Positions 7,497 through 53,935 of a stretch of DNA of 64,000 nucleotides are shown here, piece by piece; the first letter of the stretch is position 1; each line of letters starts with the position of its first letter. Source of the stretch: an uncultured archaeon (GTDB lineage Archaea > Asgardarchaeota > Thorarchaeia > Thorarchaeales > Thorarchaeaceae); assembly GCA_964473825.1 (NCBI GenBank), contig CAYYQL010000002.1, positions 32,001-96,000 on the forward strand. Reading direction: 5' to 3'. The notes beneath the pieces are model-generated. The model saw nothing but the letters and a program-made list of their open reading frames with translations, was not told the origin of the DNA and ran no database searches. A program made the translations under genes and the position numbers.

Positions 7497-7505
7497 AAAC
7501 CCAGA

Positions 7506-7539: not shown

Positions 7540-7697
7540 TCTATTCTCCAACCATACTCAATGCCACCTCTTACAGCAGTACGAGGCTGTAGGATCAGGA
7601 CTCAGCAGGATTCTGTAGCCCTTTCGTCATAGGAGCGGTCATCTGTGGGAGTATAGACTGATAATGCTGAAAAGAGCATATCCTGCTCAAGACAGAT

Positions 7698-8318: not shown

Positions 8319-8322
8319 GAGT

Positions 8323-8907
8323 TCATTCAATCCGCCTGATGCCAGCCGAAGTCTTGAGGAAGTCCGAGACTGACTTCTTTACACGCTTCCAGTCTGAAGC
8401 AAAGAGGGTGACCGATACCTTCCCTTGACCAATATGTAGTTCAATGAAGCTGGCCTCTTTTCTACCTCCCCTACCTCCTGTGGCACCAGTGATGGTCCCG
8501 GGATTGAGCAAGAGGCGACTCTTGCAGAGGTCAATAGAGGAATCATGAGTATGGCCATGAATAGCAATATCGGCTCCGACTTGCTGGGCTATCTCCCAGA
8601 GCTCGGATATGCTTCCGCGGGGGCTCAGCTGAGTGCCATGAATGAGAAGAATATGGAACTCCTCAATATCCATGGTCTTCTGGAAGTCATGCTCACCACC
8701 AAAGTCCATGTTACCATGGACCATATGACTCGGAGGAAGGGGAGGAAGACTGTTTCGCATCGCCTGCTCTTGGACTAAGTCGCCCGTTATCAGGGCCAGG
8801 TCGTAGTCGGTATCCTCAATATGACAGTAAAACTCCTCAGGAATTGAAGTGGCCCTGGTGGGAATGTGCGTGTCCCCAAAGACTAAGATCCTCTTCAACT
8901 CAGCCAT
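8323..8907 (-). CDS. YfcE/MJ0936 family metallophosphoesterase (Vps29-like)
   Basis: GDTHIP, TGD, HGNMD, HG, GHTH and NPG motifs. Confidence 0.85.
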   Translation of the reverse strand: MAELKRILVFGDTHIPTRATSIPEEFYCHIEDTDYDLALITGDLVQEQAMRNSLPPLPPSHMVHGNMDFGGEHDFQKTMDIEEFHILLIHGTQLSPRGSISELWEIAQQVGADIAIHGHTHDSSIDLCKSRLLLNPGTITGATGGRGGRKEASFIELHIGQGKVSVTLFASDWKRVKKSVSDFLKTSAGIRRIE

Positions 8908-8910
8908 GCC

Positions 8911-11139: not shown

Positions 11140-11211
11140 TCATGATGCTTGTCCTAAAAACGTTGACTCTCGGTCAAATGGAGAGAGCAGCATCTGCTCA
11201 TTCTCTTCTGG

Positions 11212-34906: not shown

Positions 34907-35348
34907 CCTCGGTGATGAGCCGTACCGCAATTTCAGTGGTTCTGAAACCTACTACACGCGGCTTGAAGAAGTTCAGTTTGTCATCGGGCACATGAGCTTC
35001 TGGTTCGACAGCTGGTCTGGATGGACTGCGTTGTCAATCTAACCACTGGAGGTCCGTTCTACTACCAGGACTGGACATACGATTACACCGTCCATCCAAA
35101 CTACATGCCCAATGGCTTTTCTCTCCTATCAGCGGTGTTCCTTGTTGGATGGTGATGCATTCATTCCTGCACTTCGTAGAGCTCTCAACAGAGGTGATTC
35201 TCTCGTCTTGGATCGCCCTCTTTGAGTCCAAGAAGATCTATAGAATGGTGTGGCAGGAGGTAGTTCTCAAGATTTTAAAAAAGGTTAGATGGCTGTCCTA
35301 TCTCCCTGCCAAAATGCCTATATACCAAACAGCAATGAGGGCCTCATA

Positions 35349-35425
35349 GGGCCGATGGCTCAGCCCGGTAGAGCGACAGGCTCTTAACTTGTTGGTCGCG
35401 GGTTCGAATCCCGCTCGGCCCGCCA
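35349..35425 (+). tRNA. tRNA-Lys(CTT), intronless
   Basis: GGGCCGA...ACAGG-CTCTTAA-CTTGT...GCGGG-TTCGAAT-CCCGC-TCGGCCC-G-CCA. Confidence 0.95.
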
Positions 35426-35470
35426 CCTGTTCTTCAGGAGGTACTCCTCACTTCCAATTGTTCTCCGTAA

Positions 35471-35560
35471 TTGATGGAACCCAATACCTGCTAAGCCACC
35501 AGTCGTTGATTGTCTTATGGACTAGCTGGTCCTCCCAGCAACGACACTGGGTTTTCTCAT
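35471..35560 (-). ncRNA. Candidate omegaRNA/reRNA 3' scaffold and IS200/IS605-type right end
   Basis: Inverted repeats 35499-35508/35539-35550 and 35525-35539 overlap the tnpB stop; minus-strand TCAA at 35474-35471. Confidence 0.35.
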
Positions 35561-37678
35561 ATCAACTTCAATGATGTTCCGCGCCGCGTTGACATCAGCA
35601 TGGAAGTATGCAGCGCAGTTCTCACAGTAGAAGTATTCCCCGCCCTTGTACTCCTCTGTCGACCCTTCGCACTTCACCCTCACCCCTGTCTCCCCGCAGA
35701 TGTGACATTTTCGAGATGTCCATGCTGGACTCACCGTCCAGACGGCGCCGTAGCAATGCCCAAGAGCCTGACGCATATACCGCACGGTCTCAAGCACCTG
35801 TGACCACAGGTTGAACGACAACCGCCAGGATAGGTCCCCGTAGCCCTTGGGCGGCTGGTAATTCTTCAGATTCTCGAAGTACAGGGTCTTGACTCCGTGC
35901 CTCTCGCAGAACCAGACGGCCCTTGAGGCAATCTGCCGAGCTATCTCACGATCGAGTCGTCGAACCTTCTTCCAGATGGCATCCAGATGTCGCTCCTTCT
36001 TCCTGAGGGGGCCGGGTCGAGGATAGTCTTTATCGTGCTTGCGCTCCCAGTTGTTGCGCATGAGAGCAACCCGTGAGGAGAGCGCCTTTGTCTGATGCCT
36101 GAGGAGGTTGCGTTTCCTCACCAGCTCGTCAAGAGAGACAAGCTCATCCACGTAACCCTGACCGTTCCGCACCGAGAGCACGATGGGCACACGGATGCCA
36201 CGATCTGCACCGGCCTTCCGCGTATACTCGCGTTCCCCAATGACTTCATCGACCATCTCCTGAGTGGGTGGGAGGAAGGGTATGTCCAGGATGACCCGGT
36301 GACCACGCAAGAGCAGAGCGGGTGGACCACAGGTACGGGACTCCCTGAGTCGCTGCACCTTCTCCTTCAGTTGTGCCAGCTTCTCGGGGTCGGCGTTCTT
36401 GCGGTTCTTCCATCTGTTCAGCTGATAGACGGCATGCTGAAGCTCGATGGTGTTGGTCAGCTGCTCGTGCTGGTCCTCGTATTTTCGTGCTCGAAAGCGA
36501 AGTTTCTTTGCTCTCAGGTGCTTGCCCTGAGCCTCCGCCTCCGCTGCCCTTACTCTGTCCTCTCTTGCGGCCCGGGGTAGCCAATCAAGGAAACGAAACG
36601 CAAGAGTCCGCGTCTTGTATGGAGAGGTCTCATGTGTTTCTCCCTCCATGTGCTCAGGGAGCTTCAGGAAAAAGAGGATCTCATCTTCCCTGTTGAGGTC
36701 CCGAGAGTACCAGTATCCTTGACTGGGAGTGTTCTCCGTGCTGGCAGAGAAGTCCTCCGTATGGGAGTACATCCTGGGAGTGGCGAAGGGGTAGCCCTTC
36801 TTGTGCCAGTGACGGAGCCGCCACTTGGCAGTTGTAAGGATGCCTTTTGCTGTCTGTTCTTCCTTGAGATACCTGCGAATCCGTCCCCGCTGGTAGGGAC
36901 GAGTCCCAAGCGGTTCTCCTCTCTTCTCGAGAATCGAGTGGTCCAGTCTCCGGCGGAGCTGCTTGAGGACCGAGAGGCTGTAGTAGAAGCCTGTCCCGTT
37001 GTTCTTGGTGGACTCACACGCTGCTCGGACTGCCTTGGTCAGGTCGCTTGCGATGTACCGGTTCTTCAGCAGCCGGATCAGGTCGGTCTCGTTCTCACAG
37101 AGATACTCGATAGCTGTCTTCATCAGCTGTCGTCGCAGCCAGTTGGACTGGATGATGCGCGCAGCATGCTCCAGCGCGTTTCGATACAGGCGTTCGAAGC
37201 ACTGCTTTTGGATCTCAGGGTGACTCCTGTATCTCACAGAGTCCTCGTTCTTGAGAAGAGCGTAGCCCTGTCTGGGATACGAGGCCAGCTCCTCGCCGAG
37301 AAACGCAAACCGTCCCTTGTCAGCATACACTCGTTCAAGAACCTCGTTCACCAGTGAGACAAACGTCTCGAAATAGGAGCCAAGAAGAGAGAGGTCGATG
37401 TTGTTGACCTTCCGCCCGGTGGCTGCGGAGAGGCGCTCCTGAATCGCAGCAAGTTCACCCCTTCGGAATCGTGGATCTGGCCCCCTTCCCTTCCCCCTCT
37501 TGTTCACCTCGCGATGAACGGAGCAGAGGGAGAACTTGGAGGTCAGGTACTTCAGACCCGTACCGTGGTGCGTTGTTGATGTGACCGATATAAAGTTGTC
37601 ATCCATTGTCTGTTGCTTCTCCGAGGGATCCCTCGTAGCATGCTCCCGGGGATGACGCCGGGCTTCTTTCGTCATCAA
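35522..37678 (-). CDS. tnpB: Large TnpB/Cas12-like RNA-guided RuvC nuclease (718 aa)
   Basis: RuvC-I AGADRG, RuvC-II LYFENL, TSRKCHICG...FYCENC zinc ribbon, RuvC-III HADVNAARNI. Confidence 0.88.
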   Translation of the reverse strand: MMTKEARRHPREHATRDPSEKQQTMDDNFISVTSTTHHGTGLKYLTSKFSLCSVHREVNKRGKGRGPDPRFRRGELAAIQERLSAATGRKVNNIDLSLLGSYFETFVSLVNEVLERVYADKGRFAFLGEELASYPRQGYALLKNEDSVRYRSHPEIQKQCFERLYRNALEHAARIIQSNWLRRQLMKTAIEYLCENETDLIRLLKNRYIASDLTKAVRAACESTKNNGTGFYYSLSVLKQLRRRLDHSILEKRGEPLGTRPYQRGRIRRYLKEEQTAKGILTTAKWRLRHWHKKGYPFATPRMYSHTEDFSASTENTPSQGYWYSRDLNREDEILFFLKLPEHMEGETHETSPYKTRTLAFRFLDWLPRAAREDRVRAAEAEAQGKHLRAKKLRFRARKYEDQHEQLTNTIELQHAVYQLNRWKNRKNADPEKLAQLKEKVQRLRESRTCGPPALLLRGHRVILDIPFLPPTQEMVDEVIGEREYTRKAGADRGIRVPIVLSVRNGQGYVDELVSLDELVRKRNLLRHQTKALSSRVALMRNNWERKHDKDYPRPGPLRKKERHLDAIWKKVRRLDREIARQIASRAVWFCERHGVKTLYFENLKNYQPPKGYGDLSWRLSFNLWSQVLETVRYMRQALGHCYGAVWTVSPAWTSRKCHICGETGVRVKCEGSTEEYKGGEYFYCENCAAYFHADVNAARNIIEVDMRKPSVVAGRTS

Positions 37679-37873
37679 CAGTACACCTCTCTCTTGTGTG
37701 GCTCAGAAGTTATAATCTCATAATCCGTTATAAAGTTACCAAGCAAGATTGCTTCTTGTCGGCTTAAAAGGATTATTAGGCTTTTTTACTTAAAATAAAG
37801 GCTTATGAGAGAATTTTGCTTCTTACAAATAGTCTAGAATATCTATATAAATAACCATGACCAATGGATAGAA

Positions 37874-40800
37874 GTGTCGCGTCTAGGGAGTTCAGGGAAA
37901 CCAAGCCAGATTCTGGCCCAATCAGTCATGACTGGGCTTGCTGCCTTAGTCAGACTGGCGCAGGCTCGAGGTAACTCCCAGACCCAGAAGTATGTCAACT
38001 CCATGACTGAGGTCTGGACTAGTGCGAAGAAGGAGCTGAAAGAAAATCAGGTCTTGAGCCCCCATGACTTCTCTTCTGTCCAGAATATCGAACATCTCTT
38101 GCGTCAGAGGTGGCTGGACATAATCTGGCACAGCACGAAACGGTACGGCAATCGTGAGTTCAAACGGATATACAGCTGGCGAGAGGGAAGTGTGGGTCCA
38201 CTGAATGGTCTACTGAACTATGCGGGAGCTCGTCTCCGAGATCTCGCTACAACTCACTACTCCTTTCCCGACCCGCAGCACTATCTCATCTTGCAGTACT
38301 CTGACGGTATCAAGACAGTCGTGCCTCAATCAGCCATATCAGAGGATGTCCCTAAAGATGTCGCGAAGAAGTATTGGCGAGTCGGCTATTCTGGTGACTC
38401 CAAGAGTCCACGTTTCTTGCTCTCACACCCTACACTTCCAGAACTCGATTTCGTAGACATGATCCGCGGACACGTACAAGAGCTCTGCCGACAACTCTTC
38501 ATCTACAACGTTCCGCGAAACGAGGCCCACCGATACATCCGCCTTCTTGTTCACAGACTCAAGCCCTTCCTGGACTGGTTCTATTCTCAAGGCGAAATAG
38601 GGCGAAAGGACTTCTATCCCGATGGAGACAGAGAACTGAGGGATATTGTACTCGAGGTACGGGCCGTGTATGGGCGTCGGGCTGGTAGACGAGAGCGTCT
38701 TTCCGACCAACTTGAGTGGAAAGACACGGCCCCTCTCACAGTAGAGTTCCTCAAGGCTCATGCAGAATCACTCTGCAATGGCTCGACATCGGAAGAGATC
38801 AGGGATGCTTGTGATAAAATCCTCGGCTACATCAATTCGGAGTATATTACCGAGCCTGACTTGCAGAAGCTCGAGGACCAGATTTCTGCCATCAGCCAAC
38901 GCGAGGGAAATGACTGGCACCGGGTGCTTCTCTCAGTCTTCCATCATCCGCGATCTCTGAAGTCGGTACTGTTCGCCGGGGACTCGATGTTGGAACGCCC
39001 TACAGACAGACAGTTCTTCGCTGAGGTGCCCATCCGTTCAAACACGGGCCATGGCAAGGCAGACTTGGTGCTCTTTGTTCGACGAAGTGTTGGACAGCGC
39101 ATGGTCTGGACTCCCGTAATGATTCTCGAACTCAAGACGAAGACCGCCTTCGACTACAACCTATACTGGATGCGACCACGGACGAAGAAGAACTACTCTG
39201 TTCCGGTGTTACATGGCTGGAAGACACGACTGACGCCCAAGGATTGGTCGACCATATCGACCTCCCTGCCCATCAAACGGACACGTGAACAGCTGGCGCT
39301 CTATGAGAAGATACTCCTTCGTGAGTACAGACAATTAGTACCTCAGGATGCATTTGCTCCCCGTGAGCTATGGAAGGGTGTCGTCATTGTTGACACGGCA
39401 GAGAGCTACGGGTCGATATTGGATGCTCTTGAGGGGATGCTTTCCAGCCTCCAGGCAGACCCAGCAGGCTTCGTTTCTACAATGGGGTGGACCTCTCACA
39501 GGTTCAAGAAGTCGGGAGGAGGTGACCGAATAGCCCTCCTCAAATCTCCCTGTTCGGGGCCCGTAGGCGTACTGCGAGAAGCTGTCATGGCAGATAAGAT
39601 CAAGTTAGACGATCCCTTTGAGCATCGGATCGCTGACGAACGCACTCTCACGCAGTATATCTCTGTTTCCTCAGCCACCTCTGGAGGAAATGCCGCTGCA
39701 TGGCATGCAAAGAACTGGCACCTCTTACATCACATTGACGAAGTCGTGGAACAGTGTCCCTCTACTGCCTCCGTCTGGTGGCTTGACTTGTTGGGAAGTC
39801 TTCCTGAACATCTGCGTAAACGGCGTTTCGGCCTGGACGACAAGTCATCGGATTTGCTCGAGAATATCACGTTCCTAAATCTGAGCAATGAGGTCGAGTC
39901 GTTTCTCAAAAGGAAATCAAACATCGTGCAGAGCCTTACCACCATCCCTGGGCCGGATAAGACAGAACACGTAATCATCATAGATGGCTGGGCGGACCTG
40001 AACCGGATGACTCCAACCTTGCAGAAGGAACGGCTCTTAGCTCTCGAATACGCTATCCTTGATACACTACCTGACAGGAATGTCAACATCATCTGGGTGG
40101 ATAGTGGCGTGAAAGGCACAAGGATGAACGAAACCTACCAACGGCCGTGTCTTGATGTTCTGCCCTATGACTCTCCTAGGCGTTTCCAGTTGGATGAGGT
40201 CATCTGGAATATACCCACTGCTCCCAGAGTATTCGGGTGGCAGACTCCCTATGCCGATGAGAAACGGATAATCGTTCAAGATACACCGACGAGTGCTCCT
40301 CCTTGGACCACTATGATTGAGGTGCCCATCCTTAGGAAGTGGGCGCGGAAGTTTAGGGGCGGCCCAAAACGCGACAAGATAGTGGCCGAGGAAGTCATCA
40401 TGGAAGAGCTAGTCACTACGCAGTCGATGTACGGACGAAACATAGTACTCGGGGACATCCAAGGTACAATCTCCTACCTCACAGAACAGACAGTCCAAGA
40501 TCTCCAGGCCGAGGCGATGACTGTCTCGCCGGCTCTTCTTCGCCCGAGGGACGAAGAAAGCATTGCCTTGGTGGCTGAACCGGAGAGCAAAAAGCACTCT
40601 TTCTCTAGTCGGTTAGTAGAGAAGGCTGAGGGGACATCGCTAAGAGAACGACTTCATCTCTGTCCGATTCATCCGCCTCCTAGTCCAAAACGAGCAACTG
40701 AAGCAAAGATGTATGCAAATCCTCTGGGTATCCCACGTCACTGGTATCACAAGACAGAGAGAGAAACTGAGGCTGAGAAACACTACACAAGGAAACCTCC

Positions 40801-42541
40801 CCTCTACGGGAAGAGTGAACTGATCTTTCTTGATAGTCCCACTGCGCGCAGGAGGGAGATCAGACGGTTACGAGATGCGGCGTGGTTTCTGAAACGCCTG
40901 TTCCCTGTGCATGACGACATGCATGGCCTGTGTGGACAGGTGTATTCACTCTGTGAAGACGCCCTAGATAATCCTGATGAGCCTGATAGATATGTTGGCG
41001 TACTTCTCCAAGTCAGAGACCTCATCATCCGTCATCCCAGCCGAGCTCGGGCTTGGCAATTGATTGAGCCGTATCGCGAGTTGGTAGGGGAGGTTCTCGG
41101 TGCGGAGAATCGTCTGCTCCTTGCCGATATCCGCCGTGAGAATCCAGATATCCTTTCCCTATATGGGAACAATCTCCTCATGGGAATCATGGCTGCATTG
41201 GCTAAGACGGTTCGTGATGAGGGGCACTCGGCTGCGATTTCCCTCTGGGAATCTGTGGTTGAATGGCTACCGTATCAGATGGGATTCGCCCCGGTTCAGG
41301 CATCTCAGGAGAGAATCCAGTCAGTGTACGACTTTCAGACGATCTTCGCAAATCTCCTCTCGCGTGCGGGATACCTTACAATGAAAGACCCCCAAGTGGA
41401 AGACCATATGGACGAGATAGCCTTGCTGCCCGCCATCTATAGGCCAGGGCTTCTAGTGGGCAAAGAAGACCATCTTTGGTTCCTCTTCGAACGCCCAGAC
41501 GGTCAAGCTGTCTGTGGTCTTATGAGAGAAAGACAGGAGAGGTTACGTTTGGGATTCCAGTGGTGTTCGAGCAATCCAGCAGAACTCAGTGATAGTGCAC
41601 AAGAGCTGCTTGACGCATCTTGCCTTTGGATCGAAGAGTCACTAGCCGTGACCAATGTAGGCGGTCAAGAGATTCTATGGGGATGGAGTCATGATGAAGA
41701 TGAATGGGGGCTCGTTGGCAGACTTGACTACGGAAGCCACCAAGATTCAGAGGGGGTCCCCTCTCTCTTGTGGGTTCGGCTCTCCCCTCTTTCTATGAAA
41801 ACGACACTTAATCTAGAAGAGTGCCCCATTGGAGCACCCATACACAGTCTTGAGAGATTTCATCCAGTGCTGGAGAGGCTTGCGGGGCAACAGCATAGAG
41901 TGATATCTGTCACATGTGAGGTGACCGTGGACTTGAGCCAAGAAACCTATGTTGTCAGGTGCAAATCATCACGGGAGCTGTATCACGAGTTCCTAACTCC
42001 GCGAACCAAGGAGGTTGTGGCTTTTCTTCGGTCAACTGCCCTCAATGGGCGCAGTGTCACTAACGAAGAGGGCGCAATCCTGACATGGGACCACCTCACT
42101 GATATTGAATATGGGTATGCTGGAAGCGGAGAGGAATGGTTCAGCCTCTCATTTCTGAAACCGCTGGTGCACCGCAGTCGTTTCTTCGAGAGCTATGCCT
42201 ATCCGGAGAATGCGGAACATCTTCTCTCTGCACAAATGGGTCCCCCCGTGACCATGCACATCTGTTATGATAAGGGAATCATGGTTATGCATCGGTTCCT
42301 ACATCCTGTACTTACTGTCAGGTTAGATGGTCTGCCCGAGAATTCACATCTGAAGAAACTTGAGGGGGAAAGAATGAACATCTATGACGTGGCCTTGCTT
42401 GCAGAATTGGAGCAGTTGATAGATATTTCAACAGGATCAATCCATCCTCTAGAGTTTGATGTGACTGCAATCACTAGCGTAGGATTGCCCGTGAAACTTG
42501 AAACCAGTCGCCTTGCCAACCTTCTTCTGTATAGAAGGTGA
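37874..42541 (+). CDS. 1555-aa protein with PD-(D/E)XK nuclease domain and possible degenerate RecA/KaiC-like domain
   Basis: AEVPI...GKADLVLF...ILELKT...EQLALY; later SSATSGGN...VWWLD...VIIIDGW. Confidence 0.65.
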   Translation: MSRLGSSGKPSQILAQSVMTGLAALVRLAQARGNSQTQKYVNSMTEVWTSAKKELKENQVLSPHDFSSVQNIEHLLRQRWLDIIWHSTKRYGNREFKRIYSWREGSVGPLNGLLNYAGARLRDLATTHYSFPDPQHYLILQYSDGIKTVVPQSAISEDVPKDVAKKYWRVGYSGDSKSPRFLLSHPTLPELDFVDMIRGHVQELCRQLFIYNVPRNEAHRYIRLLVHRLKPFLDWFYSQGEIGRKDFYPDGDRELRDIVLEVRAVYGRRAGRRERLSDQLEWKDTAPLTVEFLKAHAESLCNGSTSEEIRDACDKILGYINSEYITEPDLQKLEDQISAISQREGNDWHRVLLSVFHHPRSLKSVLFAGDSMLERPTDRQFFAEVPIRSNTGHGKADLVLFVRRSVGQRMVWTPVMILELKTKTAFDYNLYWMRPRTKKNYSVPVLHGWKTRLTPKDWSTISTSLPIKRTREQLALYEKILLREYRQLVPQDAFAPRELWKGVVIVDTAESYGSILDALEGMLSSLQADPAGFVSTMGWTSHRFKKSGGGDRIALLKSPCSGPVGVLREAVMADKIKLDDPFEHRIADERTLTQYISVSSATSGGNAAAWHAKNWHLLHHIDEVVEQCPSTASVWWLDLLGSLPEHLRKRRFGLDDKSSDLLENITFLNLSNEVESFLKRKSNIVQSLTTIPGPDKTEHVIIIDGWADLNRMTPTLQKERLLALEYAILDTLPDRNVNIIWVDSGVKGTRMNETYQRPCLDVLPYDSPRRFQLDEVIWNIPTAPRVFGWQTPYADEKRIIVQDTPTSAPPWTTMIEVPILRKWARKFRGGPKRDKIVAEEVIMEELVTTQSMYGRNIVLGDIQGTISYLTEQTVQDLQAEAMTVSPALLRPRDEESIALVAEPESKKHSFSSRLVEKAEGTSLRERLHLCPIHPPPSPKRATEAKMYANPLGIPRHWYHKTERETEAEKHYTRKPPLYGKSELIFLDSPTARRREIRRLRDAAWFLKRLFPVHDDMHGLCGQVYSLCEDALDNPDEPDRYVGVLLQVRDLIIRHPSRARAWQLIEPYRELVGEVLGAENRLLLADIRRENPDILSLYGNNLLMGIMAALAKTVRDEGHSAAISLWESVVEWLPYQMGFAPVQASQERIQSVYDFQTIFANLLSRAGYLTMKDPQVEDHMDEIALLPAIYRPGLLVGKEDHLWFLFERPDGQAVCGLMRERQERLRLGFQWCSSNPAELSDSAQELLDASCLWIEESLAVTNVGGQEILWGWSHDEDEWGLVGRLDYGSHQDSEGVPSLLWVRLSPLSMKTTLNLEECPIGAPIHSLERFHPVLERLAGQQHRVISVTCEVTVDLSQETYVVRCKSSRELYHEFLTPRTKEVVAFLRSTALNGRSVTNEEGAILTWDHLTDIEYGYAGSGEEWFSLSFLKPLVHRSRFFESYAYPENAEHLLSAQMGPPVTMHICYDKGIMVMHRFLHPVLTVRLDGLPENSHLKKLEGERMNIYDVALLAELEQLIDISTGSIHPLEFDVTAITSVGLPVKLETSRLANLLLYRR

Positions 42542-42926
42542 GATTCCTGTTGCTGGAATATTGGAGTCGGACTTACCCGTCCGTTTCGCCTATCTCATCA
42601 ATGAACGAGTAATGTGGATTGTTTGCCCAGAAGCGTACCTCTCAACTTCATGTGGCCAATGATGGTTCTCGATATATGCTTGCCAACATCGAAAGAAAGG
42701 TTATCAGGAGTGATCTCTTTGCGTGATTGAGATAGCATGTATGGCATGTGCGCTAGGTGGATTGATAGCCGTCATAAGATTGGCGATGTAGTTATTTCGA
42801 TTAGCTCGCGGAATGCCAGACAACTTGCAGACACGTGGCATCTGAAACCCAATGGCTAGCCTAGGATATGATTGGTATGCGGTGGAACCCTCATCAGTTT
42901 GTCTTCTTGTGTGGTTCAAGGGAGGA

Positions 42927-44729
42927 ATGGTTATGAAAGGAACAGAAGAAGTGTTTCGCCAGCGCCAGTACTTCGAGTTTGTTGCTCATATGAAATGGGG
43001 CTGGGAATTCCAGCATCTCTTCGAGCGGTTGATGATGAGAACTGAACCCGGCTTTATCCCAGTTAGACCACAGGGACGCTTAGGCGATTGGAAATGCGAT
43101 GGATACTCACATCGGACAAGTCGTTTCTTTCAAGTATATGCCCCAAGATTCACCAAGTCAAAGGTAGCCGTACAAAAAGCAGAAGAAGACCTTGTTTATG
43201 TACTCGAAAACTGGCCTGAAGATACAGCTCCATTACGCGAGTGGATTTTTGTATACGGCCATCATGATGTATATCCTGCTCTACGTACAGAGATTCTCAA
43301 GATTGCCCAGAATCGTGGTATCAAAATCATCGAGTGGAACCTACAAGATATTTGGAACAAGTTTCTGGAACTGAGTCGAGATAGTCGTCTAGCGGTACTA
43401 CAGATGCCCGGAGAATGGCTCACCGATGATAGTAGAAAGCTCGACCAGATACTTTCTAGATTGCCAGAAGCCCAAGGAAAAGAAAGCCAAGAAAAGAAGT
43501 CTTGGACATCTGTCCCCATACAAAGCACGCCGTCATACAGGGTGACCATAGATGAAACAAAGGGAGTTGATGGCACATTATGGTTTTTGTTCGAAATGGG
43601 GATCGAGGTGAAAGAATTCCTGGTTGAATCTTTGGACAAAATTCATCGGGAATTCAATGAATTATGCTCTTGGGGGAGAAATAAGAGCTTCCAGTGGCTT
43701 CACCGATCCAATGAAACCCTCTTGAAGGGGCATTACTGGCGTGATGATATTGGGTTTCTAACCACAACTCACATCAGAAAGCTGTCCAGTGCATCCTTTG
43801 AGCTGAGTTGTTCTCTTTCTAGAGCATTGGATGGTCACTGGCTATCGCAGTCACTTGTCGGGCTTCTTGGTAAGACCCCTGTTTTCCCTCTTGAGGAGAA
43901 TACGATAGTAGATGGCGGGAGAATTCTCATCAAAGATCCAAAGAAACCCCATCTAACGATTTTGGTGAATCTGAAAGACCTCTATGCTGGGATGATTGCC
44001 AATCCGAAGTACGAAATCAATTTTCAATCAACAGATGCATCTATAACTGAGTATTGTACATCCTCAGGTCAGAGGGTATTATCCTTCCATATTCGTTCTA
44101 ATCTAGGCAGTTTTGAAAGAATCGCTCAGATAATAGGGCCTAATGTAATTCAGCCAAGTGAAACGACTTCTTCAGATGTTAGAGCTTTCGACGTAGGTTG
44201 GAACGGAGACGGTCTTGAGATTCGGATATGGATTAACGCAGCGGAACCTGATGGATGTATTCAAGACTGCACATGTTGTCCCCTATTCTTGAAGGGCTGT
44301 AACAACGCCCATTATTGGCAATCGGTAAATCTTAAACACCTCACAGAGGAGCTCGAGTATGCATCTGTGTTTCTGCCGGCTGATTCTGAGGCGGAGCTAT
44401 TAGAGTTGGTTCGAGAAGAGATGAGTGACACCTTGCGAGTCATCTTAGGCAAGAAGGAAAGGGAAAAAGTTTCATCGCTGTTCAGACAGATAGCAGATGC
44501 TCGCGCGAAATTGAATGAACAGTTCTCGAAATTGCTAGATTACTGCCGACGAATACACCTGATGACCCCAAGAGAGCGCCGAAATGTATCTGATCTTGCA
44601 CGGGTTGTAAGGCATCGAATAGAGCGAGGCGGCAAGTTAGCAGATCCTCGCGTTATTGGTGCGAACCCAAAGTACATGGATTTGGAAACGTTTGATTGTC
44701 TAATGGAGGACTACGGCGTCGTTTTCTAG
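42927..44729 (+). CDS. Protein with N-terminal restriction endonuclease-like domain (Cap4/ABC-3C-like); possibly truncated by a TAG
   Basis: FQHLFERLM...QGRLGDWKCDGY...FFQVYAP; frame stays open 91 codons past the TAG, to 45005. Confidence 0.6.
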   Translation: MVMKGTEEVFRQRQYFEFVAHMKWGWEFQHLFERLMMRTEPGFIPVRPQGRLGDWKCDGYSHRTSRFFQVYAPRFTKSKVAVQKAEEDLVYVLENWPEDTAPLREWIFVYGHHDVYPALRTEILKIAQNRGIKIIEWNLQDIWNKFLELSRDSRLAVLQMPGEWLTDDSRKLDQILSRLPEAQGKESQEKKSWTSVPIQSTPSYRVTIDETKGVDGTLWFLFEMGIEVKEFLVESLDKIHREFNELCSWGRNKSFQWLHRSNETLLKGHYWRDDIGFLTTTHIRKLSSASFELSCSLSRALDGHWLSQSLVGLLGKTPVFPLEENTIVDGGRILIKDPKKPHLTILVNLKDLYAGMIANPKYEINFQSTDASITEYCTSSGQRVLSFHIRSNLGSFERIAQIIGPNVIQPSETTSSDVRAFDVGWNGDGLEIRIWINAAEPDGCIQDCTCCPLFLKGCNNAHYWQSVNLKHLTEELEYASVFLPADSEAELLELVREEMSDTLRVILGKKEREKVSSLFRQIADARAKLNEQFSKLLDYCRRIHLMTPRERRNVSDLARVVRHRIERGGKLADPRVIGANPKYMDLETFDCLMEDYGVVF

Positions 44730-45024
44730 GCGATTTGCTCAGACACTGATGGAGTTCTGCAACTGTTTCGAGGAAGACCATTCAAGGAAAATCGGGAATA
44801 TCTGAACTCCCTCCTTCCCTCCATTGCGGAAATAAAGGACCAGTATCTTGGACATTCCACAGAGCTATCGTACATTACAAGTTGTACGCCAGAGATAGTA
44901 GATTACGACTCGCTGGGCGTTGATTTTCTACTGGCAAATTCGTTGGGCCTCATGAAGAGTGGAGGCAAGATAGACAATTCCTCTTGGACTTTCGACAGAG
45001 ATTAAAGTGGTTGGGTTCAGATAA

Positions 45025-46638
45025 ATGTCGGAATGCCAGAAGAAATTCTTCTTTCAGATCATGTGGGGAGTAGTAATGACGAAATCCCAGTTCATTGTAG
45101 AATATACACATCCACGGTTTGCAGCAATCATGCCAGCGGAACAAATCTTGACAGTTGGAGATTTGGATGGCGATTTATGGCACTTCTCTGATGGCGATAT
45201 AACAACGGCAACTTTCTCCGATTTAGTACCTCCAGGTTCGGAACAAGGCTACGTTGGCTCGCTGTCTATCAGCCTTGTAGGTCTTGAGGTTCCAGAGATT
45301 GTGTATGAGTCTACTCGGCGCATAGATGTAACCGATATTGGCAGCTATCTGTTGCCTCTTCCTACAGCGAAACTGAGAGCAGAAGTCACTCTTGTGGATT
45401 TGGACAAGAGAGTCCTCGAAACCCTTAGATGGTATAGAACTGTCGCATCTGAGAACGGGATTGGCGCGCCACAGGCATCTATTGATGAGATGATTGAGAA
45501 ACTAAAAGAATGCTTCATAGAAGACCCATCTCGATTGCCTGAGATGCTGTCAGAGTATCAGCAAAGCGAAAGGCGTTTCAGGTTCCTTGCGAGGAAAGCA
45601 CGGGAAGACCCAACATCACAAGCAGTCGATGCTTTGCTGATTGAAAGACCTCTAGATCCCCTCGGTATGGGTAGCCAGATTGTTAGGGAATTGCCCGGGA
45701 TTATAGAAGCTTTGGATCCTCAGTCTCAACAAGAAGCGATAGATATGCTGGATGATTTGAAGAGAAGAATCCTGTCAACATCAATTCAGAAGCCTGACAA
45801 TTCAGAAGAATACGATGTTGCATTGCGACTGAGAGAAAGCCTCCGGATTCAAAAAGCGCTGCGAAAGTTTGAAGACGAAAGTACGAGACTGCCTAACAAC
45901 GTTGACCCGGATGCAACAAAGCAGTTTGCATTTGATTTCTTTCATCTACTAATGCATTACTGGAATAACGCAATCAGATATCTCAAGTACGAGAAGTCAC
46001 AGCATTGGATGAGGGAGTATCCAGAGTATGCAGCCGGTCTTTTCTATGTCAGAAATCGTGTTTCACTGGACGGCGAACACATTCTCCCGCATGTAACAGC
46101 TCACGTTAGGCAGGAGGTCCTTCGTCATAATCTGATCCAGAGAAGAGAATGGAAGGAAATCGTCCAAGCAACAAGTGACGCAGCACGCCTTGAGAGATAC
46201 ATGCTAGACTGGACGGTTGAGGGTATCCTCTCCCAGGCCCTCTCACATCTCACAAAAGGAGAGCTTCTTCCGCCGATTGTATTGGGGGGAGTTGCTCTAG
46301 AGGAGGCGATGACCAGAGCGCTGTTTCACGTGAATCCCGACGATTATGACAAGAGGGGATTGGGTCTGAAGATAAAGGACGTCCATAGAATGATAGGACG
46401 CGAAGCTCTTGGGTATGAGAAGAGTCAGTGGAAGAAGGACTGGAATCTCCTAAACAAGGGCTCAAAGGAGGAGGGGACGGGATTGGTTCAGATCAGGACC
46501 AGACTGCAACACCCCCAGATTGGATTAGAGAAGAACATCCCTTCAAGGAAAGATGTTGCTGAAATGATTCTGGCTTGCCAACGAATGTGCAATGCTTTAC
46601 TCAAATACGATCGTCACAGGTGTAGCGAACTTGCCTAG
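45025..46638 (+). CDS. Protein with C-terminal HEPN-like domain
   Basis: GGVALEEAM helix and R-x4-H motif IRTRLQHP near the C-terminus. Confidence 0.55.
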   Translation: MSECQKKFFFQIMWGVVMTKSQFIVEYTHPRFAAIMPAEQILTVGDLDGDLWHFSDGDITTATFSDLVPPGSEQGYVGSLSISLVGLEVPEIVYESTRRIDVTDIGSYLLPLPTAKLRAEVTLVDLDKRVLETLRWYRTVASENGIGAPQASIDEMIEKLKECFIEDPSRLPEMLSEYQQSERRFRFLARKAREDPTSQAVDALLIERPLDPLGMGSQIVRELPGIIEALDPQSQQEAIDMLDDLKRRILSTSIQKPDNSEEYDVALRLRESLRIQKALRKFEDESTRLPNNVDPDATKQFAFDFFHLLMHYWNNAIRYLKYEKSQHWMREYPEYAAGLFYVRNRVSLDGEHILPHVTAHVRQEVLRHNLIQRREWKEIVQATSDAARLERYMLDWTVEGILSQALSHLTKGELLPPIVLGGVALEEAMTRALFHVNPDDYDKRGLGLKIKDVHRMIGREALGYEKSQWKKDWNLLNKGSKEEGTGLVQIRTRLQHPQIGLEKNIPSRKDVAEMILACQRMCNALLKYDRHRCSELA

Positions 46639-46857
46639 GAGACCCCTTTGGTCCTTCGGTGTCTTCTAACATAGATGAGATGTGAATCAGGAAACGAGTT
46701 TGTTCCTGTTGAAATATTCTACATGCTGATCGCAGGCGATAGATAGAAATCAGTGTAACTATTCATATTCGTTTGAGTAGGAAGGGGATGTCAGAACAAA
46801 CGAAACAGAATCTCAAGCGACTGCTAAGAACCATAGAGAATCGAATCGTTTAGAGAT

Positions 46858-48075
46858 GTGCAAGTTTCACTTGCGGTTTTTACCCCAAGAGAAGAGGATC
46901 CGCAATTTGTCTATTCAATAGTACGATTCCTCAATCACGATGAACCTCATAGGAACGAGCTATACGACTGGGATAGATTCAAAGTAATTCACACTGTCAT
47001 CAGCACCGACGATGCAAAGAACCTGATTGAGCGATTATTCAATGAAAACGTCTTTGTCTTGAGAGATCGGGATTCCACGGAAGAACGAATGCTAATTCCC
47101 ATGGAATGCAATCTTCATGATATTCGTGATGTTGGAAGTCAAGAAAGCTATGGCTATGCGAAACACGATTGGCCGTCACTCTTTGCAATAGCTGATGCTC
47201 GAAACGAACCCTCTGGAGAGATATGGCATTCCTATCTATGTGCCATTGGACAGCCTCTGTTTCCGAGTGTGCAAGAGGGAGTCAGAACACTCTTTGGTTT
47301 CAGTGTTGACGAGAAATGGGGAATCAGAAGTAGGTTGGAAGTAGTCGTACCGGACTTCCGGGCGAGAATCAGGAACTTCGTGATTGAGGGCATAAGAGTA
47401 CGAATCGAAGTAGATGTAGAAAGACTGACGCTTGAAGATGTCCGGCTCAAATTATACAGCAAAGGCCGTAAGAAGCGATTCAATTCTGACGACATCAGAC
47501 TAACCGGCAACATTCACACTTGTACACTTGATGAGGAACCCGTGATGCTTGAGGCGTGTATACTATCTGTAGTTGACGGCAGTCTTGTTGATAGAGTGAG
47601 TTATGATAGGCGATACCCTTCAGGGATCACACCCCTCAGAATGTATGACACTCGTATGGCTCTAGGTCTAATCTCTGAAGGTGAGAATAGACATGTAGAG
47701 TTCAAAGAGAAACTGAATACCCAAAACCCCTATGAGTTTCTTGAGAGTGTTGTGGCATTTGCCAACACCAAAGGGGGGCAAATTCTTTTGGGCGTTAACG
47801 ATAGAGGTGAAGTGAGAGGCATAAGAAAGGACTACTCGGAAACCATAATCAATCTGATTCATTCCCATATGAATCCCCCCATCGAACCGAACATTCAGCA
47901 CGGAATAGTCATAGAGGGGCGGGAGATAACAATCGTTGAAATCCCGGAGGGCGGTGCAAAGCCCTATTGGCTCAAGAATCATGGATCTTATGTCAGAAGA
48001 GGGGCTACTGACAAACCCATTTCGAGAACCGAAGCAGAGCAATTATTCAAGAATCGAGCTGGAATAGACTTCTAG
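46858..48075 (+). CDS. Protein with C-terminal Schlafen/AlbA_2 domain
   Basis: GENRHVEFKE, VAFANTKGGQILLGVND, YVRRGATD; true start may be 46788 with a frameshift near 46845. Confidence 0.85.
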   Translation: MQVSLAVFTPREEDPQFVYSIVRFLNHDEPHRNELYDWDRFKVIHTVISTDDAKNLIERLFNENVFVLRDRDSTEERMLIPMECNLHDIRDVGSQESYGYAKHDWPSLFAIADARNEPSGEIWHSYLCAIGQPLFPSVQEGVRTLFGFSVDEKWGIRSRLEVVVPDFRARIRNFVIEGIRVRIEVDVERLTLEDVRLKLYSKGRKKRFNSDDIRLTGNIHTCTLDEEPVMLEACILSVVDGSLVDRVSYDRRYPSGITPLRMYDTRMALGLISEGENRHVEFKEKLNTQNPYEFLESVVAFANTKGGQILLGVNDRGEVRGIRKDYSETIINLIHSHMNPPIEPNIQHGIVIEGREITIVEIPEGGAKPYWLKNHGSYVRRGATDKPISRTEAEQLFKNRAGIDF

Positions 48076-48167
48076 TTCCATCTATGACTTTGGATATGAT
48101 GCCGAATATTCCTATACGCGCTCTGCACCAAAATCTGACTATTGATTTCTTTTGCGTCCCTTTTCTT

Positions 48168-48968
48168 CTAAGGGTGCCAATATCTTGCGCTACACCTTTT
48201 TCTGTAACGGAACGCCCACTTTTGAAGGCCTGAGGGCAATGGTTCAAGTGAGAAGTAGGAATGGTAATAGCTATTGCATATGGTGAAATCGAGAAACTGA
48301 TCGCATGAGGGGCAGCTGATTTCAAGACCGTCACATCGTTGGGACATGTGAGCAGAACTTGCCCGAATGTTGAGAATGGGAATATCGGATTCAATGTAAA
48401 TCTCAGTTCCACAGAAAGGACATTTGCCCACGACTTCAATCCAGCCATAGGGTTCCCAATCTAAAATAGGTCCAGAGGTGTCAGTTTCCGCATCTATCCA
48501 AGGGTTGATTTGTTCATAGACTGCTTCTGCTGTACGAAAGATGGCTTGAAGATCATCATCGCTTTGGAGTCTACTAACGAACCGATCAAGATCACAAATC
48601 ATACCTTCATCCCGATAAATCAGGTCCATCATCGCACTCTTGGCGCATCCTGATTGTTCAGTGGTTACATAGCTCTTTACGAGTTCGAAGTGATCGTAGA
48701 CATCCAAACCCATTTGGTTCCCTCTTCCCTTCAAGTAGCCAAGTTTAGCCATCGCACTTGCCTTATTCTCGAACATGCTCAAACCAAGTATGACTCTATC
48801 GATCTGGCTCCTATCAGATTCATATCCATGAAACTCAAGGAACTGCTGGTAGGCAACAACGCCGTGCTCAAAGGGCCATTGAGCATTCCAGCCTACGTCC
48901 GGAAATGGGAGGGCGACTACTGAGAAATCATTGGAATAGGCATCTGGGAGAATTTGTGCTAGTGCCAT
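48168..48968 (-). CDS. Hypothetical protein with C-terminal zinc ribbon
   Basis: CPFCG and CPSCD pairs. Confidence 0.55.
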   Translation of the reverse strand: MALAQILPDAYSNDFSVVALPFPDVGWNAQWPFEHGVVAYQQFLEFHGYESDRSQIDRVILGLSMFENKASAMAKLGYLKGRGNQMGLDVYDHFELVKSYVTTEQSGCAKSAMMDLIYRDEGMICDLDRFVSRLQSDDDLQAIFRTAEAVYEQINPWIDAETDTSGPILDWEPYGWIEVVGKCPFCGTEIYIESDIPILNIRASSAHMSQRCDGLEISCPSCDQFLDFTICNSYYHSYFSLEPLPSGLQKWAFRYRKRCSARYWHP

Positions 48969-49099
48969 ATGGGGTAGAGTGAATGTGTCTTCTCCGGGAG
49001 AATCGCCCTTGGAAACTTACCTCCCCCCCTTGTGTTCAACTCGTACAACAGCGCATTGATTAGCCGAGTTTGCGTTGAACCGTGAAACGGAGTGGCAAC

Positions 49100-50096
49100 T
49101 ACTTCCCCCACAAAATCTCGATGAAACATCGGTCGTAGTAATCCTCAATTGTGTCGGCCATATCAAAGGTGACCATGTTTTTCAAGCTCAATTTCTTCTC
49201 TTCCGCCTCTCGAAGGGCGACCTTGAGAAAAGTTAGGCTGTTTCCACATTGCTCTTCAATTCCTGAAGCCAGTCAAGGCACTCGTCACCGCTTGACCAAG
49301 GCATATCATGGCTTTGCCTTTGACAATACTTTGTGACTATTCCCTTTGCTGTCTCCTCAAATGCGGTTTCCTCTAGAAGAAAAAACACAATCTCATCTGT
49401 ACATCTCTCTCTGGATGGTCTTCTTCGCCAATCCTCTTCGTCTGCTCTAACACTTGCATTTGTACAACGAGCTATGAAGGGCACATGGATGCCATCTCCA
49501 AACCAATTCTTCTTCTCTGTCAGTAGATGCAGAAACAACTTCGTATCAAAATGCACGTTGTCGATAATTGCCAGTGCTTTTGCCCTTCCGAAAAAAGGCT
49601 CGGAAAGCGATTCGAATACTTGGTGGAGCCTCTGTGCAGGATTAGAATAACCTCCAGAAGCTGCAGCCCAGTAGAATACGAAGCTCCAATCATTCTTTTC
49701 GGTCAGAATACGATAACCAAGATGCTGTGCCAGCGTAGTCTTCCCCAGTCCAAGAAGAAACCTTCTCGGCCCGAGGTGGCTTTCCATTCCTCATTCGTTT
49801 CAAGCCCTATATGTTTCTCCCGAAACTGCGTAAGTAGGGCAGTTTCCTGTTTGAAAAGCATTACTGTCACATGAGAGATTGGCCATAGAGACCTCGATTA
49901 ACCCCTCACCGGCCCACTCGTTCGCCTCTTCTCGCTTTCTGGTTATAGAGATTTCGGAATACTCTCTTTCAAAATCTACAGCATAATCGCGAGAGTTTGT
50001 GTGGACGCCCATGATTAAGAGAACTCTTCGATGACTACAAGATAACACAAGTGAAGGGATTTCAAGGTATTCGGAAAAGACTTTATTGAAACGCAT
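49100..50096 (-). pseudogene. Decayed P-loop (STAND/NACHT-like) ATPase
   Basis: GLGKTTLA (Walker A remnant) and AIIDNVH (Walker B) within fragmented ORFs; boundaries approximate. Confidence 0.5.
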
Positions 50097-50111
50097 CCCT
50101 TAGTAGATGCA

Positions 50112-51359
50112 GTGGCAGAGGGGATGAAACTTATGGATGTCGAGAAGCTTCTAAGAAAAGGTGAGTCTCAAGAGGTTGAATTCAGAATTAAGTACGACAA
50201 GTCGCGAGAGGGGCGAAGGAACTTGGCCGACATAGTTGCTGCCTTTGCAAATACTGATGGTGGGACCATCATCTTCGGGGTTGAGGACAGTGGTGAGGTC
50301 GTTGGTTTGCCGCTATCCGACATTGATCTTTCACAAATCAAGAACCATATCGAATCATTTCTTGATCCCGTTCCTGAAATCCGATTCAGATTTGAAACGT
50401 TTGAGAAAAAACGGCTTGGAATTATCGAAGTCGACAAATCGAAACAGACTATTACATCTCGAGGTGGCAAACCACCGATACGAAGAGGGACAGCCACGGT
50501 ATACAAGGACGTAGAATACATCTACAAATCACAGAGGGAGGCGCAAAGACGTGCTATGTTCATCATGGTTGCCATCACATCAGTACTGATGGCTCTTGCT
50601 CTAGGTTTGATAGAAACGATTCTTGTCGGAGTATCAATCCGTTTCTTAATGACTATTATGATGTTCACCGTGGGCTTTCTACTACCCCTTGGCTACTCTT
50701 TGATTAAGGCTGAAACGAAATACTCAGCTGAAGCCTCAAGAACTAGAATCCATGCCTTTCTAGGGAAATCAGCACCGCTCGTTGCCATGTTTATTGTGAT
50801 TCTTGAGTTTGCTATTGCATATGTGTGGCTGTCATTTGGCATGAGCCAGCTTGGGTTTCTAACACTATCAAATCTAGCGATGTATCTTATTCTGGGCGCG
50901 ATTGACTTGGTTCCATCGAACAGACTGGCCCAGTGGTCTGGCCTGTTTTTAATTGCCATTCTAGCAGGATTCAGCCTAGCGACAATGCAAGATGCAGAAA
51001 CTCTTCCTAGCATCGTTGTTGAGCTGAGCGGTGTCTTTGTTGGCCTTCTTGGTGCGTTCTCACTGGGCGAAACTTGGAAGGAGATTGAGAACAGAAGAAG
51101 GGGTCGAGATTTAGAGCTACTACTAATCGAGGAGTTAGACTCGATTCAAAACTCCATTCTCCAGAATACGAACCAATCGTTACAATATCCCATATGGGAT
51201 GCAATAACCTCAGGAGGTGACCTGCTATCTATTCGCGGGGTTATGGTGACGAAACTGAGTAGAGCGTATCAAGCCATATCAACATACATCTCTCAGCCGA
51301 CGAGAGAGAACAAGAACACAGTCTTGAACCTGATCTCCGATTTGACCAGATCCAATTAG
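50112..51359 (+). CDS. Schlafen/AlbA_2 domain fused to a multi-pass membrane domain
   Basis: GESQEVEFR, AAFANTDGGTIIFGVED, IRRGTAT, followed by ~6 TM helices. Confidence 0.85.
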   Translation: MAEGMKLMDVEKLLRKGESQEVEFRIKYDKSREGRRNLADIVAAFANTDGGTIIFGVEDSGEVVGLPLSDIDLSQIKNHIESFLDPVPEIRFRFETFEKKRLGIIEVDKSKQTITSRGGKPPIRRGTATVYKDVEYIYKSQREAQRRAMFIMVAITSVLMALALGLIETILVGVSIRFLMTIMMFTVGFLLPLGYSLIKAETKYSAEASRTRIHAFLGKSAPLVAMFIVILEFAIAYVWLSFGMSQLGFLTLSNLAMYLILGAIDLVPSNRLAQWSGLFLIAILAGFSLATMQDAETLPSIVVELSGVFVGLLGAFSLGETWKEIENRRRGRDLELLLIEELDSIQNSILQNTNQSLQYPIWDAITSGGDLLSIRGVMVTKLSRAYQAISTYISQPTRENKNTVLNLISDLTRSN

Positions 51360-51527
51360 TCCACTAACGAAATAGTCAGAAACCTCATTCTCTTACCCAT
51401 TCAACTAATACTTCCTAGGCCATCCTTATCTTCTCCTTTACCGTTTATGTCTTGAAGTCTACTGAGGAGTTGAATCTCATCACTGGTGTTGCTTATATGA
51501 CTCCCTTCCATATCATAAGCGGTCAGA

Positions 51528-51965
51528 ATGGTCGACGAAGATTCACAGGGCGAATCAACGAATATGCGTAACAATATCGCGGTTGCTATGGCAATTCTAT
51601 CTGGTCTAGGATCAATCGGTTCTCTTATCTTGAATCTCTTGGATGCCTCGGGCTCCGTGGGTGCCGCGGCTCTTTGGTTCCAAGCATTCGCAGTACTTAC
51701 AATCCTCCTTGCAGTTGCGTTCATGAGTATGGAATGGGACCTGAGGAGAAACAAATGGCCGGGAATAGAAGAAAGGTACATGCAGTCAGACCTGCTTACC
51801 ACCGTTCCTCATCCCGAATCCACTCCTCAAGCCCTTCACCGAATGCGTATCGAAACGCTTAGAAAAAGAAAGAGGTTGGCTTTGGCAGAAGGGAAACAAC
51901 AACTTGCTGATCAGTATCAATCTGAAATAGATGAGGCAAAGAAGCATCTCAATCACGATGAATAG
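51528..51965 (+). CDS. Small 2-TM membrane protein
   Basis: Two hydrophobic helices plus a helical C-terminal tail. Confidence 0.6.
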   Translation: MVDEDSQGESTNMRNNIAVAMAILSGLGSIGSLILNLLDASGSVGAAALWFQAFAVLTILLAVAFMSMEWDLRRNKWPGIEERYMQSDLLTTVPHPESTPQALHRMRIETLRKRKRLALAEGKQQLADQYQSEIDEAKKHLNHDE

Positions 51966-52007
51966 CAATAGGCCTAGCGATAGGCTATTGACTTGTAGAA
52001 GTTTGCT

Positions 52008-53624: not shown

Positions 53625-53935
53625 TTACATCCGTCCCATAGGCTCAAACAGGCATCATTCTGTTTTATGGAGATTGCGGTGCCTACTCTGCATTGTGTCG
53701 GTCGGATAGGGCCATTCACCATAGCAAGTCACGTGATATTTTGGAGTCGAATGTCTGCCGATAGACTTGGAGCCGCTAACGATACCTTGTCTTCTTAGAT
53801 GATGGAAAATCACCTTCAGAATTTGTCCAGACTGCATCATCCTTGACAGAAGGGGCACACCAACAATGATGATTGCCGCCCGACTCAGAACGGCTGGTAA
53901 GGCGAGAGCTGTGCAGTGAGTGAGAACGAGGATGT

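Follow-up and report, generated by a model that had tools for sequence, protein, structure and literature searches.

TnpB is the ancestor of both Cas12 and Fanzor, and its large archaeal forms accompanied by a Cas1-type integrase bear on the first joining of RNA-guided nucleases and Cas1 integrases. The closest described systems are the TnpBs of Asgard archaea associated with aCas1 (Makarova et al. 2020, as cited in PMC10691335), which, according to the Asgard, aCas1 and Cas1H passages of the published TnpB classification, were catalogued computationally, with no bench tests, as the groups Cas1H-Asgard-1 and Cas1H-Asgard-2 (Altae-Tran et al. 2023, PMC10691335). The locus considered here is a tnpB-like gene of 718 codons in a stretch of 64 kb (the window, to which all coordinates refer unless another contig is named) on contig C2 of an uncultured archaeon of the Thorarchaeia, whose genome we designate G000; the congeneric genome used for comparison is G074. 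Its product is the RNA-guided nuclease of a family of aCas1-TnpB mobile elements restricted to Thorarchaeia, and we hold with high confidence that the locus is an aCas1-associated TnpB element with its omegaRNA. A first-pass annotation had suggested a possibly uncharacterised clade; this suggestion has to be withdrawn, given that aCas1-associated Asgard TnpBs already figure, by computation only, in the classification cited. What goes beyond that description is a promoter-matching guide module within the gene, miniature guide-only derivatives, and a rearranged tRNA-Lys locus.

The reading frame (35522..37678, minus strand) is real, with a TTG start and an ATG one codon on, and its GC content of 55-59% lies 5-8 points above the surroundings (about 50% on either side). 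Judged from its sequence, the product is an oversized TnpB/Cas12f-like nuclease with an apparently intact catalytic set in an Asgard archaeal host, as had been proposed: the D-E-D triad of the RuvC domain, in GADRG (D492), FENL (E602) and ADVNAA (D695), and the cysteines of the CxxC..CxxC zinc ribbon (C658, C661, C685 and C688) are invariant across 54 full-length homologues, and approximately 490 residues do precede RuvC-I. Family models recognise the C-terminal part of the protein. The Pfam model Cas12f1-like_TNB (PF07282) matches residues 625-702 (E 1.8e-10; 41.3 bits against a cut-off of 26.3), the NCBIfam models guided_TnpB (487-702; E 2.7e-15, below the family cut-off) and Cas12f2 (403-702) are confined in their alignments to the C-terminal 230-300 residues, and the PADLOC models Cas12u3 and Cas12f match residues 487-703.

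An AlphaFold (AF2) model built from the family alignment (predicted local distance difference test score, pLDDT, 80; predicted template modelling score 0.75) indicates a Cas12f/TnpB-like fold across the entire length, with a bilobed WED-REC-RuvC arrangement: WED strands, a helical REC region at about 93-294, a coiled-coil insert at 367-446, RuvC from about 454 and the zinc-ribbon TNB domain at 650-700, residues 1-35 being disordered. The structure comparison with Foldseek that had been recommended places Cas12f at the top (E 7.5e-11, with some 500-670 columns aligned); Cas12g, Cas12k, TnpB and Fanzor2 come next, with E values extending to 3e-6, and Fanzor2, at rank 33, is a distant structural match. 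In a HMMER scan of 1.84 billion representatives, we obtained two full-length clusters at 50% identity together with family fragments, and otherwise only matches at residues ~450-705, so that the N-terminal ~480 residues have no sequence relatives outside the family in this collection. More than 100 homologue clusters (90% identity) nevertheless span 94-100% of the query, and wherever a source gives an organism for a tnpB homologue, this is Thorarchaeota. The possibility of an accidental N-terminal fusion, raised in the first-pass annotation as a potential objection, is therefore dismissed, and because of the full-length clusters and the outcome of the scan we regard the extra length as a family-specific expansion of the recognition lobe.

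The immediate neighbour of tnpB, transcribed divergently, is a giant gene of 1,555 codons (37874..42541, plus strand). Its product has no match in Pfam, NCBIfam or PADLOC, a profile of 34 sequences searched against the PDB sequences was likewise empty, and Foldseek by itself returned only weak Cas1 rows; the Cas1 identity becomes visible only through fold comparison. When a model of the first 580 residues (pLDDT 83) was compared by VIA-align, residues 1-250 matched 16 Cas1/casposase entries with Z 8.8-13.3, the next unrelated fold reaching Z 5.8; the best entry, 9p1d_F, aligned over 181 residues (Z 13.3, root mean square deviation 4.0). On this modelled fold the partner is a Cas1-domain protein, and likely an integrase. 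Because the divergent neighbour carries this N-terminal Cas1 catalytic domain, we assign the locus to the aCas1-associated TnpB elements of Thorarchaeia. A paralogue of aCas1 (38% identity) has the same divergent placement beside the tnpB of contig C26, and aCas1 homologues accompany tnpB in G074, G082, G053, G071 and G055 as they do on C2 and C26; they are labelled Thorarchaeota, with single Lokiarchaeota and Promethearchaeia labels in addition. The earlier statement that the window holds neither transposase, cas1 nor CRISPR array thus stands for the array, Tandem Repeats Finder reporting 0 rows across the whole window, and fails for the transposase and cas1, given the fold of the giant neighbour here and the like arrangement on C26. 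No Y1 TnpA or serine recombinase was found among the 13 neighbouring reading frames scanned, the whole genome not having been searched for TnpA. Further along aCas1, residues ~271-560 (window 38680-39550) may form a Cas4/Dna2-like PD-(D/E)XK domain, with Z 4.9 only and with D397, E419 and K421 invariant; to the remaining ~1,000 residues no fold could be assigned.

The right end of the element is an omegaRNA-like scaffold (35502..35566, minus strand) that comprises the last 45 nucleotides (nt) of the reading frame and 20 nt past the stop codon, and ends ACAATCAACGAC. Among 33 loci, the last 40-45 nt of the reading frame and the next 20-60 nt are conserved well past coding needs, and the similarity halts abruptly at ACAATnAACGG/T, the conserved T after the scaffold (AACGG/T) being present in most loci. 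An enclosing stem, GUUGAU/AUCAAC, surrounds the hairpins CCCAG..CUGGG and GGAC..GUCC. Evaluated with RNAalifold and pair counts against 500 shuffles and slid controls, the proportion of paired cells is 91.6% (84.6% in shuffles, 26-50% in slid controls), the number of double-change cells 37 (13.5 in shuffles) and the covariation score 0.246 (0.124 shuffled); none of the 500 shuffles attained the observed double-change count or covariation score. Rfam recognises no family except tRNA in 35000-38200. Directly outside the scaffold lies the 21-nt guide-like flank TGGTGGCTTAGCAGGTATTGG (35481..35501, minus strand), which resembles nt 5-25 of tRNA-Lys(CTT). A conserved, covarying scaffold with a sharp end, followed by locus-specific sequence, is at the level of sequence the usual layout of an omegaRNA and its guide. 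The five 3' guides of G000 have no second match in that genome.

A second scaffold-like module (37598..37681, minus strand) occupies the first 27 codons of tnpB and ends ACAATGGATGAC (37598-37609). Its enclosing stem, CUGUUG/CAACAG, surrounds the hairpin CCCGG-CGTCATCC-CCGGG (37645-37662) and a second, variable hairpin, which is followed by ACAATGGATGRC, mirroring the ACAATnAACGnn end of the 3' scaffold; ViennaRNA predicts the same topology for both modules. In the alignment of 29 loci, all five stem pairs of the first hairpin are kept in 27-29 of the 29 rows, and three of them change in a paired manner (CG 12/TA 13/AT 3; CG 20/GC 8; GC 21/AT 7; 28-29 rows paired at these positions). The 16 nt that follow this module, AACTTTATATCGGTCA in the window (37582..37597, minus strand), double as codons 28-32 and the opening base of codon 33. 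When these 16 nt were compared with the 250-300 nt upstream of tnpB in 27 loci, their best match in 24 was the gene's own promoter, at a fixed distance of 109-139 nt and with 12-16 identities, and in these 24 loci the match directly follows TTGGT, TTGAT, TTGTT or CTGGT, a TTGRT-like motif reminiscent of a transposon-associated motif (TAM). At least 13 of 16 positions are identical in 19 of the 27 loci, against 3% of non-self pairs. The window accordingly has a TAM-like TTGGT (37738-37742) followed by the promoter copy AACTTTATAACGGATT (37722-37737), together 37722..37742 on the minus strand, just upstream of the proximal TATA-like box GATTATAAC. The matched guide and promoter words differ between lineages (AACTTTATAAC, ACACTTAAAAATG, AGACATATCTGCCC and ATTTTAAGTAGCCC), so guide and target change together. 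Pairing between two RNAs cannot explain the match, since both copies have the same sense; an RNA guide that reads promoter DNA can.

These observations suggest a mechanism by which the nuclease would limit its own expression. TnpB would process both modules out of its own transcript; with the 3' guide it would act as a transposon-maintenance nuclease on the site set by the right flank, and with the 5' guide it would bind its own promoter beside the TTGRT TAM. As only the first 9-14 nt match, the promoter would be bound without being cut, which would shut off tnpB and perhaps the divergent aCas1 in a negative feedback loop akin to the one that Cas9 forms with its long-form tracrRNA (Workman et al. 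2021, as cited in PMC10705468). Miniatures consisting of promoter and guide only would in turn arise when the 5' and 3' scaffolds recombine. The step of autorepression we consider slightly better than an even bet. The fuller scheme, in which an intact TnpB carries a second scaffold in its first 27 codons with a guide aimed at its promoter beside a TTGRT TAM, switches itself and perhaps the integrase off by binding, and gives rise to miniatures through scaffold recombination, seems to us evenly poised between true and false. The explanation of the locus as a whole (identity of the element, guides and autorepression taken together) is in our judgement probable. The papers searched describe Cas9 autoregulation and nuclease-dead TldR repressors, and no such self-aimed guide module in a TnpB.

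The genome-wide copy number, a check proposed earlier, points to a mobile family. G000 contains three full copies (65-68% mutual identity) and three 3' fragments; within the order, matches occur in 41 of 87 genomes, as many as 12 in a single genome and with very many 3'-terminal fragments among them, so that the family is multicopy and patchy. A search of genome contigs for related loci returned one close orthologue only. The C26 copy and its counterpart on contig C14 of G074 share 88% DNA identity that starts exactly at the right end, with unrelated sequence outside, and one copy in G043 is a deletion derivative of a 9.4-kb element in which a 109-nt left end is joined to tnpB. Another arrangement (G000:C78:1801-4537, locus L049) is a solo tnpB without aCas1: it is immediately preceded by a 3' fragment (35 codons) of a different copy, a convergent tRNA-His follows downstream, the right-end flank resembles the antisense of a tRNA T-arm, and the copy is syntenic with contig C2 of G074, which has 4.5 kb extra upstream of tnpB.

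A hidden Markov model of the right-end scaffold detects 25 sites in G000, 18 of which have no tnpB upstream. At least nine of these 18 form a family of ~190 nt with sharp ends and a TATA-like box; none of these solo sites lies in the window. As observed in C3:119518-119706, C48:14104-14292 and C40:21268-21456 of G000, a left end with an inverted right-end hairpin is followed by a stretch like the proximal promoter of tnpB (AGGAGTTTATATCC), the right-end scaffold and then unique sequence; these elements look like derivatives reduced to promoter and guide RNA. One miniature copy seemed to be flanked by a target-site duplication of ~12 bp, a candidate that we rejected after eight copies gave 6.6 of 14 matches, against 6.2 in non-self controls. 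The left flanks (L080 2757, L081 2901 and the miniature copies of G000) end in (T/C)GAT in 4 of 11 cases, recalling TTGRT and the TTGAT TAM of ISDra2. For the window copy, a tentative left end (42560..42607, plus strand) is an inverted copy of the right end, with the GGAC..GTCC hairpin and then CAATGAACG, 19-66 nt past the aCas1 stop codon. It is a candidate only: it lacks a counterpart in other subfamilies, the left end typical of the miniature family occurs neither in the window nor on C26, and no block after the aCas1 stop is common to the subfamilies.

The copy in the window is an old resident of its locus, which is defined by tRNA-Lys(CTT) and the NMO neighbourhood. Between G000 and G074, tnpB has a ratio of nonsynonymous to synonymous substitution rates (dN/dS) of 0.107 and aCas1 one of 0.20, and their dS (0.45-0.46) is similar to the values for the right-flank genes (0.49-0.53); the copy therefore predates the split of the two genomes and has been kept intact. 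A decaying copy or pseudogene is ruled out by the dN/dS of tnpB (0.11). In the TnpB tree, tRNA-linked copies fall into three well-supported clades, interspersed with other copies and mixing genera, which argues for some exchange or repeated occupation.

The tRNA-Lys(CTT) gene (35349..35425, plus strand) is intact and lies convergent to tnpB, as annotated earlier, 96 nt from its stop codon; ARAGORN detects no other tRNA-Lys(CTT) in the assembly. Eleven loci, one in each of eleven genomes, have in common the order of right end, ~20 nt resembling nt 5-25 of tRNA-Lys and then 15-50 nt, after which an intact convergent tRNA-Lys(CTT) follows in nine of them; in G069 and G071 that copy is incomplete or degenerate. 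Past aCas1 there is a canonical tRNA-Lys promoter with a 5' stub of 9-13 nt, at most ~100 nt from the aCas1 stop codon in G074, G053 and G082 and 7.3 kb away in the window, where the promoter (TTCCGAAATCTCTATAAC) precedes the 9-nt stub GGGCCGGTG (49907-49915); the two together (49907..49959, minus strand) are the left piece of a broken tRNA-Lys gene. From this layout of right flank and promoter stub we conclude that the element occupies a broken tRNA-Lys gene, next to which lies an intact copy in inverted orientation. The NMO/r445 neighbourhood is common to several genera, and the locus is occupied in G074, G082, G053 and G071 also; in an element-free relative, the tRNA has the orientation of the broken copy. 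The 3' guides agree with the linked tRNA at 8-15 of 20 positions and reach at best 16 of 20 with any of 17 tRNA-Lys alleles; in front of the tRNA protospacer stands GGGC, not TTGRT.

Several further rearrangements were observed at this locus. Compared with positions 5208-12330 of the G074 locus L012, the tRNA-Lys/tnpB/aCas1 block of the window (35349-42471) is inverted relative to both conserved flanks, the breakpoints lying at two inverted copies of the tRNA-Lys promoter. Around 11 kb of the window (42600-53900) are absent from G074 and are split by the promoter and stub into 7.3 kb and 3.9 kb; this stretch encodes two Schlafen/AlbA_2 proteins (46858-48075, also recognised by PADLOC as PDC-S50, and 50112-51359) and several reading frames without a family. 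A comparison of the tRNA-Lys(CTT) genes of G000 and G074 (window 35349-35425 versus L059) reveals 12 differences over 77 positions, among them paired changes in the stems, against a dS of ~0.5 in the neighbouring genes; element-free relatives possess a third allele, often with an intron. In G007 (contig C25, L056, 1577-1872), the tRNA-Lys promoter and gene are immediately preceded, in the same orientation, by a decayed tnpB remnant of 73 codons whose scaffold is degenerate; this is a different and eroded version of the locus. With its broken copy, inverted intact copy and fast-diverging alleles, the tRNA-Lys locus is a puzzling instance of an essential gene reshaped by a mobile element.

A number of points weigh against the explanation we prefer. 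The minimum free energies computed by ViennaRNA are unremarkable for both modules (z-scores of -1.3 and 0.0). In the window itself, guide and promoter are identical at only 12 of 16 positions, the first nine contiguous; TTGRT may be part of the promoter instead of a TAM; and part of the conservation of the 5' module is owed to the protein, because the module lies inside coding sequence. The start of transcription, the processing and the lengths of both guides are inferred only. The left end of the window copy is not fixed, and the published downstream motif GTTCACTCA is not enriched after the right end (3 of 53 sequences with at most one mismatch, 0.8 expected) and occurs in the window at chance level. 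Finally, a long period of vertical inheritance under purifying selection would suit a domesticated gene as well. The first-pass annotation had indeed considered the nuclease as perhaps domesticated, and vertical inheritance and purifying selection are the part of that idea that our data support. Under such a reading the aCas1-TnpB pair would be immobile and would serve the host, for instance through RNA-guided regulation or by anchoring the adjacent defence-like island, its multicopy relatives being selfish cousins; the occupation of the NMO/r445 locus in four other genomes, the dS equal to that of the right-flank genes, the adjoining stretches with Schlafen/AlbA_2 genes, and a 3' guide without a good target among the 17 tRNA-Lys alleles or a second copy in its own genome would all be in keeping with it. 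Purifying selection extends, however, to the aCas1 integrase, the RuvC triad is intact in contrast to the known domesticated TldR and Cas12k, the three genus-mixing clades suggest exchange over pure descent, and decayed remnants occupy the same locus in G007, G081 and G031. A family with many copies, a patchy distribution, fragments and miniature derivatives speaks against domestication, which we do not favour and regard as unlikely.

The association with tRNA-Lys admits of a different interpretation, namely that the 3' guide cuts rival tRNA-Lys(CTT) alleles while the linked, diverged copy is immune, so that the element together with its own tRNA replaces sensitive alleles by recombination. 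Such a drive would account for elements that, in three TnpB clades, occupy a broken tRNA-Lys gene with an intact copy inverted next to it, for guides that never match the linked allele, for the identity of the G074 guide with the first 13 nt of the G053-type allele, for tRNA-Lys genes as divergent as those of G000 and G074 between flanks with a dS of ~0.5, and for the different, often intron-bearing allele that element-free genomes hold in the orientation of the broken copy. On the other hand, one old insertion followed by rearrangement can produce a shared architecture, and the divergence between the G000 and G074 guides (14 of 21 positions identical) is about that of neutral sites. As the best match between guide and allele is 16 of 20 and the protospacer follows GGGC instead of TTGRT, we have not adopted this interpretation and retain it as a minority reading that is quite improbable. 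Least credible is a type V CRISPR effector, that is, a compact Cas12 with an overlooked or lost array and with the Cas1 neighbour as its adaptation enzyme. The PADLOC matches to Cas12u3 and Cas12f, the best structural match to Cas12f and the adjacent Cas1-domain gene are what one would expect of it; but there is no tandem repeat whatsoever in 64 kb, cas2 was not noted, and each copy consists of a single scaffold followed by unique flank, the copies being dispersed like those of a transposon. We consider this exceedingly improbable, and continue to prefer an aCas1-associated mobile element. If the proposed autorepression is true, it would represent a compact, self-limiting module that binds and does not cut within an active nuclease, of interest for genome editing, and would show how transposons restrain a dangerous enzyme. 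Both modules, TTGRT and the promoter target are short defined sequences and can be tested directly.

With Cas1H-Asgard-1 and -2, as portrayed in the Asgard, aCas1 and Cas1H passages of PMC10691335, the present element shares the Asgard host, a tnpB that adjoins a highly diverged Cas1 homologue, a conserved region 3' of tnpB followed by a conserved T and a hypervariable presumed guide, and the dispersal of a transposon-like element. It differs in that GTTCACTCA, the downstream motif published there, is not enriched here, and we therefore class it broadly among the aCas1-associated Asgard TnpBs and place it in neither named group; a promoter-matching module, residence at tRNA-Lys and miniature derivatives are not mentioned in those passages. 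The TnpBs of IS200/IS605 elements (ISDra2 type) resemble it in the RuvC and zinc-ribbon nuclease, in an omegaRNA scaffold that overlaps the 3' end of the gene, with the flank outside the right end as guide, in a TTGAT-like motif as the likely TAM, and in lacking a target-site duplication (eight miniature copies here). In contrast to these, the present protein is ~300 residues longer, owing to an expanded REC lobe and a coiled-coil insert, its partner is a 1,555-residue Cas1-domain protein with no Y1 TnpA among the neighbouring reading frames, and a second scaffold with an internal guide is found at the 5' end.

Cas12f (type V-F) is the best structural match to the model over WED, REC, RuvC and TNB. 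Sequence similarity to it is nevertheless restricted to the C-terminal 250 residues, the protein has 718 residues instead of 400-550, and the CRISPR array expected beside a type V effector is lacking, the window being free of tandem repeats. Fanzor belongs to eukaryotes and eukaryotic viruses, whereas the host here is archaeal. Since the RuvC triad is intact and invariant, the protein is no TldR, although with its 5' guide it may work in a TldR-like manner. What the long-tracrRNA loop of Cas9, the TldR repressors and the element described here would have in common is a natural guide that aims an RNA-guided protein at a promoter, together with a match so short that binding without cutting is expected; what sets the present case apart, as known from sequence alone, is that the guide lies inside the nuclease's own first codons and that its target is the nuclease's own promoter.

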